Shown in pieces: positions 24,059 to 30,703 of a DNA stretch of 32,000 nt. The DNA is from Candidatus Heimdallarchaeota archaeon B3_Heim (GTDB lineage Archaea > Asgardarchaeota > Heimdallarchaeia > Hodarchaeales > Hodarchaeaceae). Every line of letters begins with the position of its first letter. Position 1 is the stretch's first letter. The stretch is taken from positions 1 to 32,000 of the forward strand of contig NJBF01000037.1 of the NCBI GenBank assembly GCA_003144275.1, written 5' to 3'. The notes below the pieces were generated by a model. That model searched no databases. It was not told the origin of the DNA and saw nothing but the letters and a program-made list of their open reading frames with translations. The position numbers and the translations under genes were made by a program.

Positions 24059-24760
24059 CTACTCTGGTGTTTTCCTTTTTATTTGTATTTTAGATATTTT
24101 CGTTTTGATTATTGTGGGAGGGACAGATTCTTCTTCCATTGGTCTTTTTTCTAGGATAGATTTTGGAGGTGTTTTACTCCTGATATCTTTTTTGTGCTTT
24201 TGTTTGAATCCTAGTGTGCTAGGGGGAGGTATAGTTGTTTTGTTGGGAATTTCTGCGGTGATGCGATGTGGAGGAGTCTTGTTTATTATCCGATTTCGTT
24301 TCTTTTCAGCAATACCTCTACGAGTTGGTGGGACATTTTTATGATCCTGGATTTTTTTTCTTCGTGGGGGGACTTTTCGATTTACTAGGCCTTTTTTACG
24401 TCTTGATTTTGGGAGGCTCCCTTTAGTAGATGGAGTTGCCAATTCTTTCCTACCGTGAGTCTGAGTAACAGGAGGAAGATTGTTCGTGCTAGGTATTTGC
24501 TTTTTTCTCTTTTCTTTTGTTCCATGACTGGTGGGATAGGTACCAGATTCTTTTTTTATTAGTCCATTCTCATTTTTTCGCGCAGGAGGTAGCTTAAATT
24601 GCTCTTTCAAATCATTAGGAGTTTTTTGTTGAATAGTAGCAACTTTTTCTTTCATTGGAGTTTTCTCTTTGATTGTATCCTTCGGCTTTTTTGATCGAAC
24701 TTTGAATCGAGCCACTTTGTACATACCATCCTGCACTATTTTCAAAAATAACTTCTTCAA
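24059..24760 (-). CDS. Lys/Arg/Pro-rich low-complexity protein with recurrent KTPP/xVPP motifs
   Basis: 233 aa. Sits in the operon 15 bp and 48 bp from its neighbours. About 13 periodic x-[TVLI]-P-[PK] motifs. Confidence 0.65.
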   Translation of the reverse strand: MKKLFLKIVQDGMYKVARFKVRSKKPKDTIKEKTPMKEKVATIQQKTPNDLKEQFKLPPARKNENGLIKKESGTYPTSHGTKEKRKKQIPSTNNLPPVTQTHGRKELATPSTKGSLPKSRRKKGLVNRKVPPRRKKIQDHKNVPPTRRGIAEKKRNRIINKTPPHRITAEIPNKTTIPPPSTLGFKQKHKKDIRSKTPPKSILEKRPMEEESVPPTIIKTKISKIQIKRKTPE

Positions 24761-25411: not shown

Positions 25412-26524
25412 TTATTTTCTGTATTTTTTCTGGAACATTTGAATTATTTTCTGATAACTGGGTCCTGAAATCCGGATCATTTTTACATTATTAATGGGTT
25501 TATTACAACGGCTACAAATATTAGACACTAGAAGCCATTTTTGAAACTCATCAGCATGAGATGGATGTTTACAACGGGGGCAAATGACTACTTGTTTATC
25601 TGATTCTGTGGGAAATTCATAGCAATAAATACATCGAAAATCGTCCTTTGAAATGTTCTGACCTGCTGGGGTTAAACTGGCAATAAGTGCAGGAGTTAGC
25701 TTCCTCTTTGTTCTCTTTGGCATGTGTATTGGAGGAGCGACCTGAACATTTGATCTCTGGGGACTTCTACTCGCTCTTTCCTGTACTTGAGTTACACGTG
25801 ATGGCTGTGGAGTTGATCGACGAGTTTCTACTGATGTTCTAGAAGATCTAACAGCTCTTCTCTGTGATTGAAAATCTCTAGTGGAAGTTCTAGAAACCCG
25901 TCTAAAGGGAATAATTACAAATTTGAGTATATAATTTTGAAAGAAGGTTAGGATACTGAAAAGTAAGAAAAATAATGACGATAGTTCAATTGTTTTCTGA
26001 TCTAACCAAAAAATGGTGAAAATTACAAGAAAACTTGCATTTAACACAATTATCGATTCAGAAGGAAATCGTCGTCGAAATATGAAAATATTAGGATAGG
26101 TTCCAGAATAGTATCTTCTAATTAGAATTCCGAGGATTGCAAAGAAGGGTAAACAAAATATTAGACTAAATAAATTTAAAAACAGATAGAAAGAATCTAG
26201 CTGAAATAAATTTAGGTTTAAATCTAATTCAATAAATGTTGCATGGAGAATATTTTCAGTATCGTCCAATGTGGCAGTAAATGCAGTCAAACTCCCCCCG
26301 ATAGCAATCAGGGCAGGAATACTAATGAAAATTGCTGAAGCTAGTGGAGCATTATATGATCGGTAATATCGCCATTCATCTACTAGTTTGATTAGTAAAA
26401 TAGCAACGAAAGTGAAATAAATTAACGTTATCGAGAGAGAGCTTTGTGGGTTAACGATTTGGCTTAAGAACGCAAAGACCAATCCAGTGAGAAAAACAGA
26501 AATATAGACATTTCTTCCAACCAA
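25412..26524 (-). CDS. Multi-pass membrane protein with C-terminal RING-like domain (putative E3 ligase)
   Basis: About six to seven TM segments, an Arg/Ser-rich linker, then CIYC-x14-CPRCKHPSHADE...W...CSRC. Confidence 0.8.
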   Translation of the reverse strand: MVGRNVYISVFLTGLVFAFLSQIVNPQSSLSITLIYFTFVAILLIKLVDEWRYYRSYNAPLASAIFISIPALIAIGGSLTAFTATLDDTENILHATFIELDLNLNLFQLDSFYLFLNLFSLIFCLPFFAILGILIRRYYSGTYPNIFIFRRRFPSESIIVLNASFLVIFTIFWLDQKTIELSSLFFLLFSILTFFQNYILKFVIIPFRRVSRTSTRDFQSQRRAVRSSRTSVETRRSTPQPSRVTQVQERASRSPQRSNVQVAPPIHMPKRTKRKLTPALIASLTPAGQNISKDDFRCIYCYEFPTESDKQVVICPRCKHPSHADEFQKWLLVSNICSRCNKPINNVKMIRISGPSYQKIIQMFQKKYRK

Positions 26525-26547: not shown

Positions 26548-27369
26548 TCAATCATAGTCATATTCTAAGAACATTGTTTTCCCTTCTGCTAAGGGTAGTA
26601 GTGTGCTGATTAATTCCGGAAGACTTTCTAAAGGACAGTTTAAAACTTCATGACGAGGTTCTTCCCATGTTTTCAAATCTTTTTTTAGCCTGAAGATTTT
26701 GAATCCATAATTTCTTCTGGATATTTTAGTTGGATCAATAACGAGGGCTATCGGCGCCGCGAGTTGAGATCCTTTAGTTCCTAATTTTTGATAGCGAACT
26801 TGTGTTCTATAATCCGTTGTACTCATAAATGCTCCATAAGAAGGATGTGAATGGTACCATCCAAGAATTAGTTCCTTTTTCTTCCTACTTTCATTAAATA
26901 CTCGCACCATGCTTTGGGGATCCTCGATTTGGGCATTAACATTTGTGCCATGACCTACTGGAAATGCATCTGTAATCACCAGACACGCAAGGGGAGTGTC
27001 TTTATTTTCAATATGTCCTGTTAACAGCCCTATAACTTCAACCCATTCTACTTGAGGAATTGTTGAATTTGCATACTTTAGAGCATGGAGACTTAGACGG
27101 ATATAGGCTTTTAATTGAAGTTTCACTCTTGCTGGATCAATTTCAGGATCTAGATCATCAATATCGAGTAAGTCTTCTTCTCCCTGAGTGCGGTCATTTT
27201 TCAACGAAAACGTCTCCTCTGAAGGAGGAATTTTTTTGGATTCAGTAGTCGGGAATTTTAAAGTAAGAGTTAAATTATCTGGATCATAATTCATGGAGGT
27301 ATCTCTCAGAAGAAGTTCGAATAAATTCCGCGGTTTTTCTTTTTTTTTATCTGGCATCAAATAGACCAC
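26548..27369 (-). CDS. JAB1/MPN/Mov34 (JAMM) metalloprotease, Rpn11/CSN5-like
   Basis: EVIGLL...GWYHSHPSYGAFMSTTD...LVIDP JAMM motif. Confidence 0.92.
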   Translation of the reverse strand: MVYLMPDKKKEKPRNLFELLLRDTSMNYDPDNLTLTLKFPTTESKKIPPSEETFSLKNDRTQGEEDLLDIDDLDPEIDPARVKLQLKAYIRLSLHALKYANSTIPQVEWVEVIGLLTGHIENKDTPLACLVITDAFPVGHGTNVNAQIEDPQSMVRVFNESRKKKELILGWYHSHPSYGAFMSTTDYRTQVRYQKLGTKGSQLAAPIALVIDPTKISRRNYGFKIFRLKKDLKTWEEPRHEVLNCPLESLPELISTLLPLAEGKTMFLEYDYD

Positions 27370-27402: not shown

Positions 27403-27930
27403 TCACCACTTCTTTTTTGCATACTTCTTAGTGATTTTTTTAGCCTTTTCTTTGAATTTACCCTTATTTTTCAGGTATTCCACTGCAGCTTTCTTGTTAA
27501 AAACATCATGAGGGTTGGTGTAAGCTTCATCAATATTGAACATGGCTAAAATTGAGTATATCACTGTGGTAACGTTTTTTGACGGAGACCATCCTTGTGG
27601 TTTCCCTACCAAGTCGGGGTCGACTAATCCAAGACAAATATTCCGTTTTCCCTTGTATTCATCAGGTTTGGGCCAAAAATTCGGGTGCCAAATCGGGGTA
27701 TGTAATCTTACGAAAGGAGGAGAATAGGGGTAATTGGAACCAAATTTGATTTCGAGCATAAACTTCCCGTCTTGGTAGGGAGTACCTTTTGGACCTTCGA
27801 GAAGAATAGCTAAGTGCTCTACACTTTTTTTCTCTCCTGGGAAAGCTTTTAGCTGTTTAATCGTCTTTTGCTTGTAAAGAGTTTTTAATTGATTATAATC
27901 TTCTGCAATACGTTTAATGCGAATAGACAT
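27403..27930 (-). CDS. Ubiquitin-conjugating enzyme E2
   Basis: GPKGTPYQDGKF...YPYSPPFVRLHTPIWHPN...ICL...WSP UBC-fold motifs with catalytic Cys. Confidence 0.95.
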   Translation of the reverse strand: MSIRIKRIAEDYNQLKTLYKQKTIKQLKAFPGEKKSVEHLAILLEGPKGTPYQDGKFMLEIKFGSNYPYSPPFVRLHTPIWHPNFWPKPDEYKGKRNICLGLVDPDLVGKPQGWSPSKNVTTVIYSILAMFNIDEAYTNPHDVFNKKAAVEYLKNKGKFKEKAKKITKKYAKKKW

Positions 27931-27936
27931 GATAAA

Positions 27937-29175
27937 TTAACCTTCTAACTTTAGTGTAAGATATGCTTGTGATCCATCGTCAAAACCTGTTACAAGAACT
28001 GTCTCACAATCCCTTATTTCAGCTTGAGATATTGTTTGTTCCATAGATATTTCCCCAACTTCAGAAGAATCAATCCTAAATATCATAGGAGGAAATTCAG
28101 GGTCAATTGGGTAATTTTTATTATGAGAAAATTTCTCTATTAACCGTGTTAAAGGAAAGTTTCGTTTAACTTTGATACGAAACATTGAAGTTCTTCCCCG
28201 TCCACACATCTCGCATTTGGGATTACGTGGTTTTTCAATCTCATAAAATTTACCCGTTAAACCATTATAAATCAAATAGTTCAATTGGATATTCCCCAAT
28301 TTCTTATCTGGCTCTGGTGTGTGAATATGATGTAGTATTTTGACAGCCTCTTGTGATTGAAGAGATGCCATTACGCAATTTATCGTGATAACTGTCGGCT
28401 CGTGATTATCAATTATCTGAATAATCTGGTTGATCGAAAATTGCTCTTCTTGGGGAAAATATTCTTTGAGAAGTTTATTTGCATATAAAACCACATCTTT
28501 AACTTCATTTGACTTTAGAATATTAACTGGTTTTCCGTGTTTTTGTTCGAAGTGTAACTGTCCTTTAAGAATACAATGAGCTGGTCTACGAGGTTTTCCC
28601 ACAAGTGTACATGCTCCAAGCTGATCTTGATTACGTTCAGTTAAAGGATCACACTCCAAGCATGCGTTATTGAACGGAGAAACTACATATGTATGGCCAT
28701 TGTACACTGAAGTGCCTGCATCAATGAGATATTTCTTGTTATGAACTGCTCTTCGATTTAATTCAGATCTAGCTTCAATAGAGTCAAGACCAGCAATATA
28801 AAAATCGACCTTGCTGTAAATATGAGGAGGTACATCTTGTAAGGGGCAATCATAAGCATCAATGGTGATGAATGGATTCATTTCACGAAGTCTTTTCGCT
28901 GCGATCTTTGCTTTTGAAGCACCCTCTGGTGCACCAATAAACAATATCTGACGATTCAAATTTGAATATTCTATTGTATCAAGATCCACAAGTATTAAGT
29001 GTCCAACACCAACCATAGCCAAGTTTTTAGCTATTTCTACGCCTAAGCCCCCTATTCCCGCAATGAGGACTGAGCTTTGTTTTAGAATTTCCTGGTTCCA
29101 TCCAGGAAGACGAAATTGACGATCAAAGCGTCGTTTTTCCTCATGTGTTAGTGTTTTACTTGTGAAATTTGACAT
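27937..29175 (-). CDS. Ubiquitin-like activating enzyme E1 (ThiF fold, UBA3-like catalytic-Cys region, C-terminal extra domain)
   Basis: RFDRQ, GIGGLG, DLDTIEYSNLNRQ, CLEC and CEMC Zn pairs, and ACTLVGKPRRPAHC (PxCTxxxxP-like). Confidence 0.93.
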   Translation of the reverse strand: MSNFTSKTLTHEEKRRFDRQFRLPGWNQEILKQSSVLIAGIGGLGVEIAKNLAMVGVGHLILVDLDTIEYSNLNRQILFIGAPEGASKAKIAAKRLREMNPFITIDAYDCPLQDVPPHIYSKVDFYIAGLDSIEARSELNRRAVHNKKYLIDAGTSVYNGHTYVVSPFNNACLECDPLTERNQDQLGACTLVGKPRRPAHCILKGQLHFEQKHGKPVNILKSNEVKDVVLYANKLLKEYFPQEEQFSINQIIQIIDNHEPTVITINCVMASLQSQEAVKILHHIHTPEPDKKLGNIQLNYLIYNGLTGKFYEIEKPRNPKCEMCGRGRTSMFRIKVKRNFPLTRLIEKFSHNKNYPIDPEFPPMIFRIDSSEVGEISMEQTISQAEIRDCETVLVTGFDDGSQAYLTLKLEG

Positions 29176-29200: not shown

Positions 29201-29551
29201 TTATCCTGCAGTACTTACAGGAATAATTAGGACTTCTAGTCCATCTTCCAGATCATAATTTGACAATACATCATCCGAATCCAATGTTCGTCCACTAATT
29301 GAAAGGTGAAAGTCTTGTGTATCTAGTGCAAATATTTCACCAACTGTTGCGGCTAATTCTCGTACAGACAGTTCTGGATCTACAGTTAGTTTTTCTTGTT
29401 TTTCATGGCGTCCAATTGTTGATCGGAAGAATAATGTTATTCGTTGTCCATTTGGGATTTTGGAACGCGGAACTTTCGATTGTATCGATGAATCGTTTTG
29501 CCCCTCTTCCTCTTCTTCTTCAAATTCAATAAACTCTTCATTTTCCGACAT
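29201..29551 (-). CDS. Ubiquitin-like protein 1: acidic N-terminal extension, C-terminus ...PVSTAG
   Basis: Beta-grasp pattern (ITLFFRS...LTVDPELSVREL...FHLSISGRTLDSDDVLSNYDLEDGLEVLII). ATG at 29551 preferred over the track start at 29698. Confidence 0.88.
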   Translation of the reverse strand: MSENEEFIEFEEEEEEGQNDSSIQSKVPRSKIPNGQRITLFFRSTIGRHEKQEKLTVDPELSVRELAATVGEIFALDTQDFHLSISGRTLDSDDVLSNYDLEDGLEVLIIPVSTAG

Positions 29552-29800
29552 AATTACGGCTTCCCTAGTATTCTCGGTGATAAATTCTGGAAAGATTTTG
29601 TCCTTAACTTTCGGAGGTGTTCCAGTTCTTAAAATTTGTAAAGAGAATACAATCAGTTTCATCGTAATCCTTCCATAAATATCTATCTGAATTTTCAACT
29701 ATATGCCAGTTAATTGGGATTGAAGAGTTTCTATCTAGTTTTAATTATTTTCAACCTTTTATTTTTGCAAAAATTGGGAAAAAGTGAATTAATCCCCTTA

Positions 29801-30154
29801 TTAATTCCATCCAGCGGTTGAATGAGGAATTAAGAGGATTTCATCACCATTTTCGATTCCATAATCTCCGATTGGAGAGCTTTCATCCAGAGTTCGTCCA
29901 GCATGAGATAAGTGAAAATCATCTGGATCTAATCCAAATATATTCGCTAGTGTATCTCGGACATCTCTCACGGGTGTTTTTTCACCGACGGAGAGTTTCT
30001 CTGTTCTCTCAGGGCCAACGGTTGATTTAAAGAAAATATTCTTCTTGGGTCCAGAGGTAGTCCCTGTTACGGGTGTCTTCGACTGTGCAGGAGTTTTTGC
30101 CTTTACAGACGATGTTTCTTCAAGATCAAAATCTATATCTTCAAAGTCACTCAT
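29801..30154 (-). CDS. Ubiquitin-like protein 2: acidic N-terminal extension, C-terminus ...PHSTAG-WN
   Basis: Paralogue of Ubl1 (FFKSTVG...IFGLDPDDFHLSHAGRTLDE...YGIENGDEILLIP). Confidence 0.9.
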   Translation of the reverse strand: MSDFEDIDFDLEETSSVKAKTPAQSKTPVTGTTSGPKKNIFFKSTVGPERTEKLSVGEKTPVRDVRDTLANIFGLDPDDFHLSHAGRTLDESSPIGDYGIENGDEILLIPHSTAGWN

Positions 30155-30322: not shown

Positions 30323-30703
30323 GTGTCGAAAGAAGCTCAAAATGTCAAGATTTCTAGTAAGGCATGGGAGATGCTTCGTTGGGCAAAATTTGAACTAACT
30401 GAGAAATCTTATAGCGATGTACTCATCAAATTAGATGGTACAATTCAGAACAGAGCTCATTCTCTTCAAGAGGAACTTAAGGAGTTTGATGAAGGTCGTC
30501 ATAGGATTGAAATGAAAATCCCAGGAGAAGGGAAAGTAACTAAAAGTTCGAAAACTATTCTACTAAGACCAGATGCTCATAAAATCTTAAGTCGTCTCAA
30601 ACTTGAAAGTAATACATCTGCGTACACATTTTCAGATGCTATTGAGTTTCTGATAAAACAAAATTCAGCTATTTGGGAAAGTATTCCAGATCGCTTGAAA
30701 TAA
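30323..30703 (+). CDS. Putative DNA-binding protein with two tandem RHH/VapB-antitoxin-like repeats
   Basis: NVKISSKAWEMLRWAK...SYSDVLIKL and TILLRPDAHKILSRLK...TFSDAIEFLI both fit the [KT]TI.I....Y..L...K...SFSDVI..L pattern. GTG start. Confidence 0.65.
   Translation: MSKEAQNVKISSKAWEMLRWAKFELTEKSYSDVLIKLDGTIQNRAHSLQEELKEFDEGRHRIEMKIPGEGKVTKSSKTILLRPDAHKILSRLKLESNTSAYTFSDAIEFLIKQNSAIWESIPDRLK

Follow-up and report, generated by a model that had tools for sequence, protein, structure and literature searches.

An Ala-Gly-ending class of archaeal ubiquitin-like proteins encoded with its own enzymes, likely a distinct set of conjugatable modifiers

What is the function of two adjacent genes whose small products resemble ubiquitin (Ub) but end in Ser-Thr-Ala-Gly (STAG)? 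The genes lie in a 32,000-nucleotide stretch of DNA from Candidatus Heimdallarchaeota archaeon B3_Heim (contig NJBF01000037.1, positions 1 to 32,000 of the forward strand), which was analyzed at its full length and is called the window below. We call their products UblA and UblB for ubiquitin-like protein (Ubl). UblA and UblB are likely to be conjugatable modifiers of the ubiquitin family that form a distinct, Asgard-wide class with a pathway of its own. The gene content, the fold, the invariance of the tail motif, the Ubl fusions, the conservation of the operon and the coexistence of three cascades in one genome are direct observations, and from the sequences we infer the activation, transfer, cleavage and insulation of the STAG Ubls.

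Results

Two tandem genes encode Ubls that end in Ala-Gly

The two genes are on the minus strand, with UblA upstream.

29801..30154, minus strand: UblA, a 117-residue precursor that ends in HSTAG (Gly115) followed by WN (open reading frame and DNA reading)
29804..29809, minus strand: codons for W116 and N117 after Gly115 of UblA, a predicted propeptide (DNA reading)
29552..29800, minus strand: spacer between the UblA and UblB genes, 249 bp, AT-rich
29201..29551, minus strand: UblB, 116 residues, which ends in VSTAG followed by the stop codon (open reading frame and DNA reading)

The UblA gene ends ACC GCT GGA TGG AAT TAA, which reads T-A-G-W-N-stop, with the Gly115 codon at 29810-29812 and the stop at 29801-29803. 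The UblB gene ends AGT ACT GCA GGA TAA, which reads S-T-A-G-stop, with the stop at 29201-29203. UblB is therefore born mature because nothing is encoded after its terminal Gly. Two tandem STAG-ending Ubls, one with a WN extension and one mature, had been proposed in a preliminary description of this locus (as Ubl2 and Ubl1, here UblA and UblB), and both open reading frames and both ends are confirmed on the DNA. The two proteins share 43% identity over 117 residues (E = 3e-28). UblA consists of a disordered arm (residues 1-36) that contains an acidic and aromatic DFEDIDFD motif and two K-T-P motifs, and a beta-grasp domain (residues 37-110). UblB has an acidic N-terminal arm, likewise predicted to be disordered, with K-V-P and K-I-P motifs, followed by its beta-grasp domain. 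The UblB start is assigned to the ATG at 29551 (MSENEEF) because MSENE(D/E)F is kept across orthologues and the open frame upstream is not. A longer 165-residue UblB that begins at a TTG at 29698 was rejected, as this upstream frame varies between orthologous genomes.

The Ala-Gly tail is a conserved family feature

Ala is the penultimate residue in 104/104 family proteins with this tail architecture, and the motif (I/L/M)(I/L)Px-S-T-A-G hardly varies among proteins with identities as low as ~45%. In a set of 72 homologues of similar length, almost all full-length proteins have the ending (H/V/Q)STAG, in some cases followed by a tail. More distant members, which end in SSTAG, ASTAG, TSTAG, SSRAG and similar sequences, came from a profile search against 1.84 billion representatives. 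Both paralogues are present in 18/21 genomes of the genus, other families of the class have one or two copies, and STAG Ubls are found in metagenome-assembled genomes (MAGs) labelled Heimdall-, Hel-, Loki- and Thorarchaeota. A terminal Ala-Gly (AG) that varied between orthologues had been named in the preliminary description as grounds for giving up the idea of a separate Ubl class; the invariant Ala (104/104) disposes of this concern. Judged by these alignments, the STAG tail is conserved far beyond chance and is under selection.

The register of the tail against ubiquitin is the same in phmmer, hhalign and MAFFT alignments, which place I109 at V70, A114 at G75 and G115 at G76 of ubiquitin. 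The tail is P-(H/V)-S-T-A-G and not the Gly-Gly end (LRLRGG) of ubiquitin, and Ala occupies the G75 position in 25/25 aligned members. The recognition surface is altered as well. L8 is replaced by Thr in 25/25 members, I44 by Ser in 23/25 and K48 by Arg in 23/25. The changes R42 to His, L71 to Pro, L73 to Ser and R74 to Thr are each found in 23 to 25 of the 25. The family thus lacks Lys48 and the hydrophobic L8-I44-V70 patch of ubiquitin, of which only the third position is retained, as Ile. In these alignments the defining feature of the class is its tail, (I/L)(I/L)Px-S-T-A-G, which is uncharged, takes the place of ubiquitin LRLRGG and has Ala where ubiquitin has G75.

UblA and UblB have the ubiquitin fold

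UblA matches the Pfam ubiquitin family (PF00240) with 35.0 bits, over the cut-off of 25.4, and passes marginally for Rad60-SLD (24.4 bits, cut-off 23.8). All members of the family alignment that were tested (20/20) match both families, with a best PF00240 E-value of 3.5e-10. An AlphaFold model of UblA built on a 20-member family alignment has an arm (approximately residues 1-36) with a predicted local distance difference test score (pLDDT) below 50 and a core with pLDDT 83-91. The core consists of strands 37-44 and 50-57, helix 62-73, strand 80-84, helix 95-98 and strand 105-110, which is the beta-grasp fold. The top Foldseek matches of UblA in the PDB are structures of Caldiarchaeum subterraneum ubiquitin (CsUb; 6fno, 6fnn and 6fj7), with 26-27% identity and template modelling (TM) scores by target of 0.79-0.85. 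Ubiquitin, ISG15 and SUMO follow. SUMO1, Smt3 and ubiquilin are on top of the Swiss-Prot fold matches (13-20% identity), and UFM1 is absent from both sets of matches. These results identify UblA and UblB as members of the ubiquitin superfamily.

A tree of the 82-residue cores separates the two paralogues within the genus into distinct clades (support 94/94 and 90/99), with UblB evolving faster than UblA. Deeper relations are not resolved in this tree, and the Gly-Gly Ubls of the same genome, described below, lie on very long branches.

Related precursors are fused and extended at the Ala-Gly junction

Twelve relatives from independent sources encode two or three Ubls head to tail in one protein (P0073, P0074 and P0345-P0354; locus L041:7001-7690). 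The units are joined exactly at AG, and the junction AG|(S/A/G/V/M)DDFEDF places the acidic start of the next arm directly after the AG. One such fusion, P0347, is encoded on a Hodarchaeales contig of 170 kb, where the gene order is diUbl, E1 (activating enzyme), E2 (conjugating enzyme), JAMM protease, a 413-residue protein and a 195-residue protein. The tandem genes in the window thus correspond to a polyubiquitin-like gene whose units are not fused. Across the 104 family proteins, 0-12 residues follow the terminal Gly; they are unconserved and are often a dipeptide that contains an aromatic residue. The combination of an invariant AG, variable and unconserved tails, and fusion junctions at AG is the signature of a C terminus that is processed and activated.

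STAG-ending Ubl domains are also found at the C terminus of larger proteins whose genes do not adjoin an E1, in MAGs labelled Loki-, Thor- and Heimdallarchaeota (P0098/P0220, P0099, P0102, P0111, P0115, P0138, P0142, P0152, P0158, P0173 and P0198; loci L038 and L040). Their N-terminal parts read as Roadblock/LC7-like, Zn-ribbon plus coiled coil, P-loop ATPase or VWA sequences. If activated at the Ubl end, such a protein could be attached to a target in its entirety. Their existence away from E1 genes is also what one would expect if STAG Ubls were adaptors or scaffolds that are never conjugated and if the STAG end had a structural role only. We give this explanation very little credence, since the signature of a processed C terminus and the tight, conserved linkage of the Ubl genes to E1, E2 and JAMM both argue against it.

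The WN extension of UblA raises the possibility that the paralogues are functionally different modifiers and that the extension is a regulatory gate, with UblB (Ubl1 of the preliminary description) activated constitutively and UblA (Ubl2) activated only after cleavage by JAMM. The separate, well-supported clades, the faster evolution of UblB, the differences between the paralogues in the arm and at the position equivalent to R72 (His in UblA, Val in UblB), and the presence of an extension on UblA only in this genome all fit this proposal. The distribution of extensions among relatives does not. Of the 17 congeneric genomes with complete copies of both genes, 9 carry an extension on UblB, 4 carry one on UblA and 4 have none. 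In family f5 (a handle of this analysis), one genome has an extension on both paralogues. The extensions are conserved neither in sequence nor in length, and some relatives simply have fused units. Such a pattern resembles that of a dispensable tail that drifts neutrally, comparable to the extra residue that ends polyubiquitin genes. A protease gate tied to Ubl2, as first suggested, does not survive these counts, and the combination of paralogue-specific function with a gate is distinctly unlikely. Given their distinct clades within the genus, UblA and UblB may still be functionally different modifiers.

The Ubl genes head an operon of conjugation enzymes

The Ubl genes are the first two of a minus-strand operon with the order Ubl, Ubl, E1, E2, JAMM and membrane RING-like protein, which also encodes further small membrane proteins and a Lys-rich protein.

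27937..29175, minus strand: E1, 412 residues, ThiF fold with GxGxxG and NLNRQ motifs (Pfam ThiF, E = 2e-52)
27403..27930, minus strand: E2, 175 residues, UBC core with HPN and a downstream Cys in NICLGL (Pfam UQ_con, E = 1e-26)
26548..27369, minus strand: JAMM/MPN+ metalloprotease, 273 residues, intact HSHPx7SxxD motif (Pfam JAB, E = 2.6e-15)
25412..26524, minus strand: polytopic membrane protein, 370 residues, C-terminal Cys/His RING-like finger (weak Pfam RING matches)
24059..24760, minus strand: Lys/Arg-rich protein, 233 residues, six K-(T/V/I)-P motifs (shuffle test)

The closest PDB sequence matches of the E1 are UBA1 (1.8e-34), UBA7, UBA3 (5e-28) and SAE2 (7e-27), and UBA5 (3.5e-12) and ATG7 (1e-7) are far more distant. 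The UBA1 and UBA7 matches are to the active adenylation domains. By sequence, the operon E1 is of the canonical, UBA1/UBA3/SAE2-like type. Cys189 in the sequence ACTLVG and two CxxC pairs are invariant columns in a 23-sequence alignment; Cys189 is the candidate catalytic residue and the CxxC pairs are candidate ligands of a structural Zn. The complex prediction of this E1 with mature UblB (residues 36-116) scored 0.16 against a mark of 0.32. The E2 has an insertion of ~6 residues between HPN and the Cys, and its PDB matches are UBE2R2, UBC13 and UBE2T. The JAMM protein is the only protease in the operon. Its best PDB match is Caldiarchaeum Rpn11 (CsRpn11), followed by Rpn11 and CSN5, and it is the candidate for both precursor processing and deconjugation. 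From their motifs the E1, the E2 and the JAMM protein all look like active enzymes. The 370-residue membrane protein is a candidate E3 (ligase), and a CxxC..CxxC protein is encoded at the same operon position in relatives. The co-encoded set of Ubl, ThiF-type E1 with a Cys, UBC-type E2, JAMM and RING-like protein is that of the Caldiarchaeum/Asgard operon type, with the RING match below threshold. This operon is kept in the genus, in family f5 and in a MAG labelled Helarchaeota, which has the same order of Ubl (ending in TSTAG-GF), E1, E2, JAMM and a 389-residue protein.

A biosynthetic role must be weighed against this gene set, namely that UblA and UblB are sulfur carriers of the MoaD, ThiS, SAMP or Urm1-like beta-grasp type, activated by a ThiF protein for purposes other than protein tagging. 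The automatic JGI names point in this direction. Several family members are called 'molybdopterin converting factor small subunit' and the E1 'molybdopterin/thiamine biosynthesis adenylyltransferase', and some fused forms have precomputed ThiS matches. However, a UBC-type E2, a JAMM protease and a RING-like protein are encoded in the operon, and a MoaE, ThiG or rhodanese partner is not. An insertion with a Cys is present in the E1, which resembles UBA1, UBA3 and SAE2 more closely than MoeB or ThiF, and by Pfam the Ubls belong to the ubiquitin and Rad60-SLD families. There is scarcely any likelihood left for a sulfur carrier.

The enzymes also bear on a proposed relationship to the single-Gly modifiers UFM1, ATG8 and ATG12, which would make the operon an archaeal forerunner of UFMylation. 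UFM1 resembles UblA in that a lone Gly, preceded by Val in UFM1, is followed by a propeptide of two residues, and Ufm1 homologues are reported in nine Asgard clades (PMC12962969). However, UFM1 belongs to its own Pfam family and works with a UBA5-type E1 and a UFC1-type E2 that lacks HPN, none of which is matched by the window proteins. The Pfam Ufm1 profile (PF03671) has no match at E<=1 in either Ubl and none at E<=0.1 among 20 relatives, and its best match in the whole genome has an E-value of 0.53. The E1 is far nearer to UBA1, UBA3 and SAE2 than to UBA5 or ATG7, the E2 is a UQ_con protein with HPN, and the fold searches return CsUb, ubiquitin, ISG15 and SUMO and not UFM1. The comparison with UFM1, ATG8 and ATG12 in the preliminary description is superficial, as only the single Gly is shared, and a UFM1-like or ATG8/ATG12-like pathway is extremely improbable.

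Two further observations concern the DNA around the Ubl genes. The spacer at 29552-29800 has oligo-T tracts directly 3' of the UblA stop and a block, ATTCAGATAGATATTTATGGA, that is invariant in four close genomes. It could serve as a terminator plus internal promoter, but conservation among genomes this closely related says little. Divergent from UblA, at 30323-30703 on the plus strand, is a gene for a 126-residue protein with two ribbon-helix-helix-like stretches, which scores 25.8 bits against Pfam VAPB_antitox (cut-off 27.9).

Three ubiquitin-type cascades coexist in one genome

The same genome encodes two further complete ubiquitin-type cascades, on contigs C10 and C57, with Ubls that end in Gly-Gly (GG). 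The C10 locus (L034:4579-18268) encodes an 80-residue ubiquitin that ends in TTGG-MVR, an E1 (349 residues), an E2 and a 70-residue RING protein, together with UEV/Vps28/Vps25-like genes, which are ESCRT-I/II-like, and small GTPases. The C57 locus (L035:4350-8299) encodes a 109-residue Ubl that ends in IKGG, an E1 (412 residues), an E2 and a JAMM protein. The C57 and window E1s are 37% identical, and identities between the enzymes of the three cascades are 28-37%. The C10 ubiquitin retains GG, K48 and a hydrophobic residue at the I44 position. The presence of two GG cascades beside the STAG operon indicates that the STAG Ubls are a distinct class, probably insulated from the others. A distinct Asgard Ubl class, suspected at the outset, thus gains an operon with its own E1, E2, JAMM and RING-like protein that coexists with two GG cascades.

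How the cascades would be kept apart is suggested by the tails. Processing of CsUb by CsRpn11 is much slower when the penultimate Gly is changed to Ala (G77A), and a G77V protein is not processed (PMC6043591); the authors reason that recognition evolves to be exclusive where systems are co-resident (PMC6043591). The AG tail and the altered surface most likely insulate the STAG cascade from the two GG cascades.

Four points weigh against a conjugatable STAG class with its own pathway. First, UblB scores 19.6 bits (E = 7.8e-4) against Pfam ubiquitin, which is under the cut-off of 25.4. Second, the Pfam RING matches of the candidate E3, the 370-residue membrane protein, have E-values of 0.02-0.1 and all fall below the cut-offs. 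Third, a penultimate Ala slows the JAMM protease in the sole characterized archaeal system (CsRpn11, PMC6043591), so a co-adapted protease must be assumed for the STAG cascade. Fourth, insulation from the GG cascades is read from sequence only.

The N-terminal arms carry conserved motifs

The N-terminal arm is conserved across the family as a motif-bearing region. K-(T/V/I)-P occurs twice in the arm of each Ubl, within residues 18-28 of UblA and residues 24-32 of UblB. In the family arm, P22 and P28 are invariant and K20 and K26 are near invariant. K-(T/V/I)-P may be an acceptor-lysine consensus. The motif is also enriched in the 233-residue Lys-rich protein of the operon, with 6 occurrences against 1.2 expected in shuffles (p ~5e-4), and similar K-rich proteins with K[TVI]P motifs are encoded at the same operon position in three other genomes (G009, G010 and G026). 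The 233-residue protein may be a substrate or acceptor.

An acidic-aromatic motif (DFEDLDFD-like) opens every arm, at residues 3-11 of UblA, at 5-12 of UblB and in the internal units of the fusions P0345-P0354. It resembles short linear motifs of the acidic LC3-interacting region (LIR) and SUMO-interacting motif (SIM) types. The acidic arm also varies between strains. Metagenome contigs of two runs have a 3-nucleotide insertion (TCT, plus strand) at position 29510, in the poly-Glu part of the UblB arm, and this is an in-frame length variation. No RNA data set is listed for this region, and the short contigs that cover UblA, UblB and the E2 in two runs labelled metatranscriptomic are probably DNA and do not count as a sign of expression.

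A more elaborate proposal extends these findings to a pre-eukaryotic, SUMO-like orthogonal pathway. The E2 and the membrane RING-like protein would read the K-(T/V/I)-P lysines, chains would form through the arm, the Lys-rich protein would be a dedicated acceptor, and the AG tail and the polar surface at the I44 position would provide insulation. We put this forward tentatively, as rather unlikely in its complete form. If true, the coexistence of several Ubl pathways insulated from one another, which is a hallmark of eukaryotes, was already established in Asgard archaea.

A predicted pathway for the STAG Ubls

A conjugation pathway for UblA and UblB would begin with cleavage by JAMM after the terminal Gly, which would remove WN from UblA, the short tails from relatives or the next Ubl in the fusions. 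JAMM trimming of a Ubl precursor is documented for CsUb (PMC6043591), and trimming by a JAMM protease before E1 activation is documented for bacterial BilA (PMC10557695). The canonical-type E1 would then adenylate the free Gly and form a thioester on Cys189. The UBC-type E2 would receive the Ubl from the E1, and the membrane RING-like protein would steer it to lysines, probably on membrane-proximal targets. JAMM would also undo conjugation. A search of mass spectrometry data for lysines with an AG remnant, advised in the preliminary description, would fail for these conjugates if trypsin were used. In both Ubls the final Arg or Lys is 28 residues away from the terminal Gly, so that trypsin leaves no AG remnant.

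Discussion

Eukaryotes have several mutually insulated Ubl pathways, such as those of ubiquitin, SUMO, NEDD8, UFM1 and others. One Hodarchaeales genome contains three complete cascades, each with its own Ubl tail (TTGG, IKGG or STAG), and this bears on when the diversification of eukaryotic Ubl pathways began. The STAG operon and its relatives are a testable case for the multiplication of Ubl pathways, polyubiquitin-like precursor genes and membrane-anchored RING ligases that predate eukaryotes. They are also a natural experiment on the penultimate tail residue as a determinant of E1 and deubiquitinase (DUB) specificity. The parts are all small and soluble proteins, amenable to reconstitution, and cultured Hodarchaeales isolates have been reported (bioRxiv 10.1101/2025.02.26.640444).

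Operons that encode ubiquitin, E1, E2, RING and JAMM are already known in Caldiarchaeum and Asgard archaea. Our literature search, within the library open to it, found no paper on an Ala-Gly or single-Gly class of Asgard Ubls; what it returned was limited to the Gly-Gly ubiquitins of Asgard archaea and Caldiarchaeum, the Ufm1 homologues of Asgard archaea and the bacterial Bil system. The same search found no description of poly-Ubl precursors of the AG class or of its coexistence with Gly-Gly cascades. For single G75A ubiquitin mutants it returned only uses of the G75A/G76A double mutant.

The Caldiarchaeum operon (CsUb, E1, E2, small RING and CsRpn11; PMC5654768, PMC6043591) has the same gene set as the window, and its JAMM protein removes the precursor tail. 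The likeness extends to individual proteins, as CsUb is the best solved fold match of UblA and CsRpn11 is the best PDB match of the window JAMM. In contrast, CsUb has a Gly-Gly end and a single Ubl gene, and the window has an invariant Ala-Gly end and two paralogues, which are fused units in relatives. The window Ubls also have long conserved N-terminal arms, and the RING-like domain is on a polytopic membrane protein.

The Asgard Gly-Gly ubiquitin system linked to ESCRT-I/II (Hatano 2022, PMC9192718; Lu 2023, bioRxiv 10.1101/2023.07.25.550441) shares the phylum and the E1/E2/RING logic with the STAG operon. The Helarchaeia Gly-Gly system has been reconstituted, and its pro-Ub has a short C-terminal extension, SPKN (Lu 2023, bioRxiv 10.1101/2023.07.25.550441; Hatano 2022, PMC9192718). 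This ESCRT-linked system corresponds to contig C10 in the present genome. Unlike it, the STAG Ubls have Ser at the I44 position and Arg at the K48 position and lack ESCRT neighbours, and the enzymes are ~30% identical.

Bacterial type II BilABCD operons (PMC10557695) resemble the STAG family in having a universally conserved single C-terminal Gly, up to 9 unconserved residues after it and an operon-encoded JAMM DUB that trims the Ubl before E1 activation. Unlike the window operon, BilABCD is antiviral, its E1 combines an inactive and an active adenylation domain in one chain, and it lacks a RING protein. We regard the likeness as a functional analogy and make no claim of membership.

SUMO, like the STAG Ubls, has a flexible N-terminal arm (residues 1-36 of low pLDDT in UblA) and its own E1 and E2 beside those of ubiquitin. 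However, SUMO ends in Gly-Gly and is activated by a heterodimeric SAE1/SAE2-type E1, whereas the window Ubls end in Ala-Gly and a single E1 gene is present in the operon. We claim no closest eukaryotic Ubl, SUMO included, as a short beta-grasp domain does not resolve the relationship.

A parallel to the fused relatives is the eukaryotic polyubiquitin gene. In both, head-to-tail units (two or three in the STAG relatives) are joined at the reactive Gly, which is the predicted cleavage site in the STAG fusions, and the last unit often has a short extra tail. Unlike the units of polyubiquitin, the STAG units keep an N-terminal arm of ~35 residues as a linker and are diverged paralogues instead of identical repeats, and the two units in the window are separate genes 249 bp apart.

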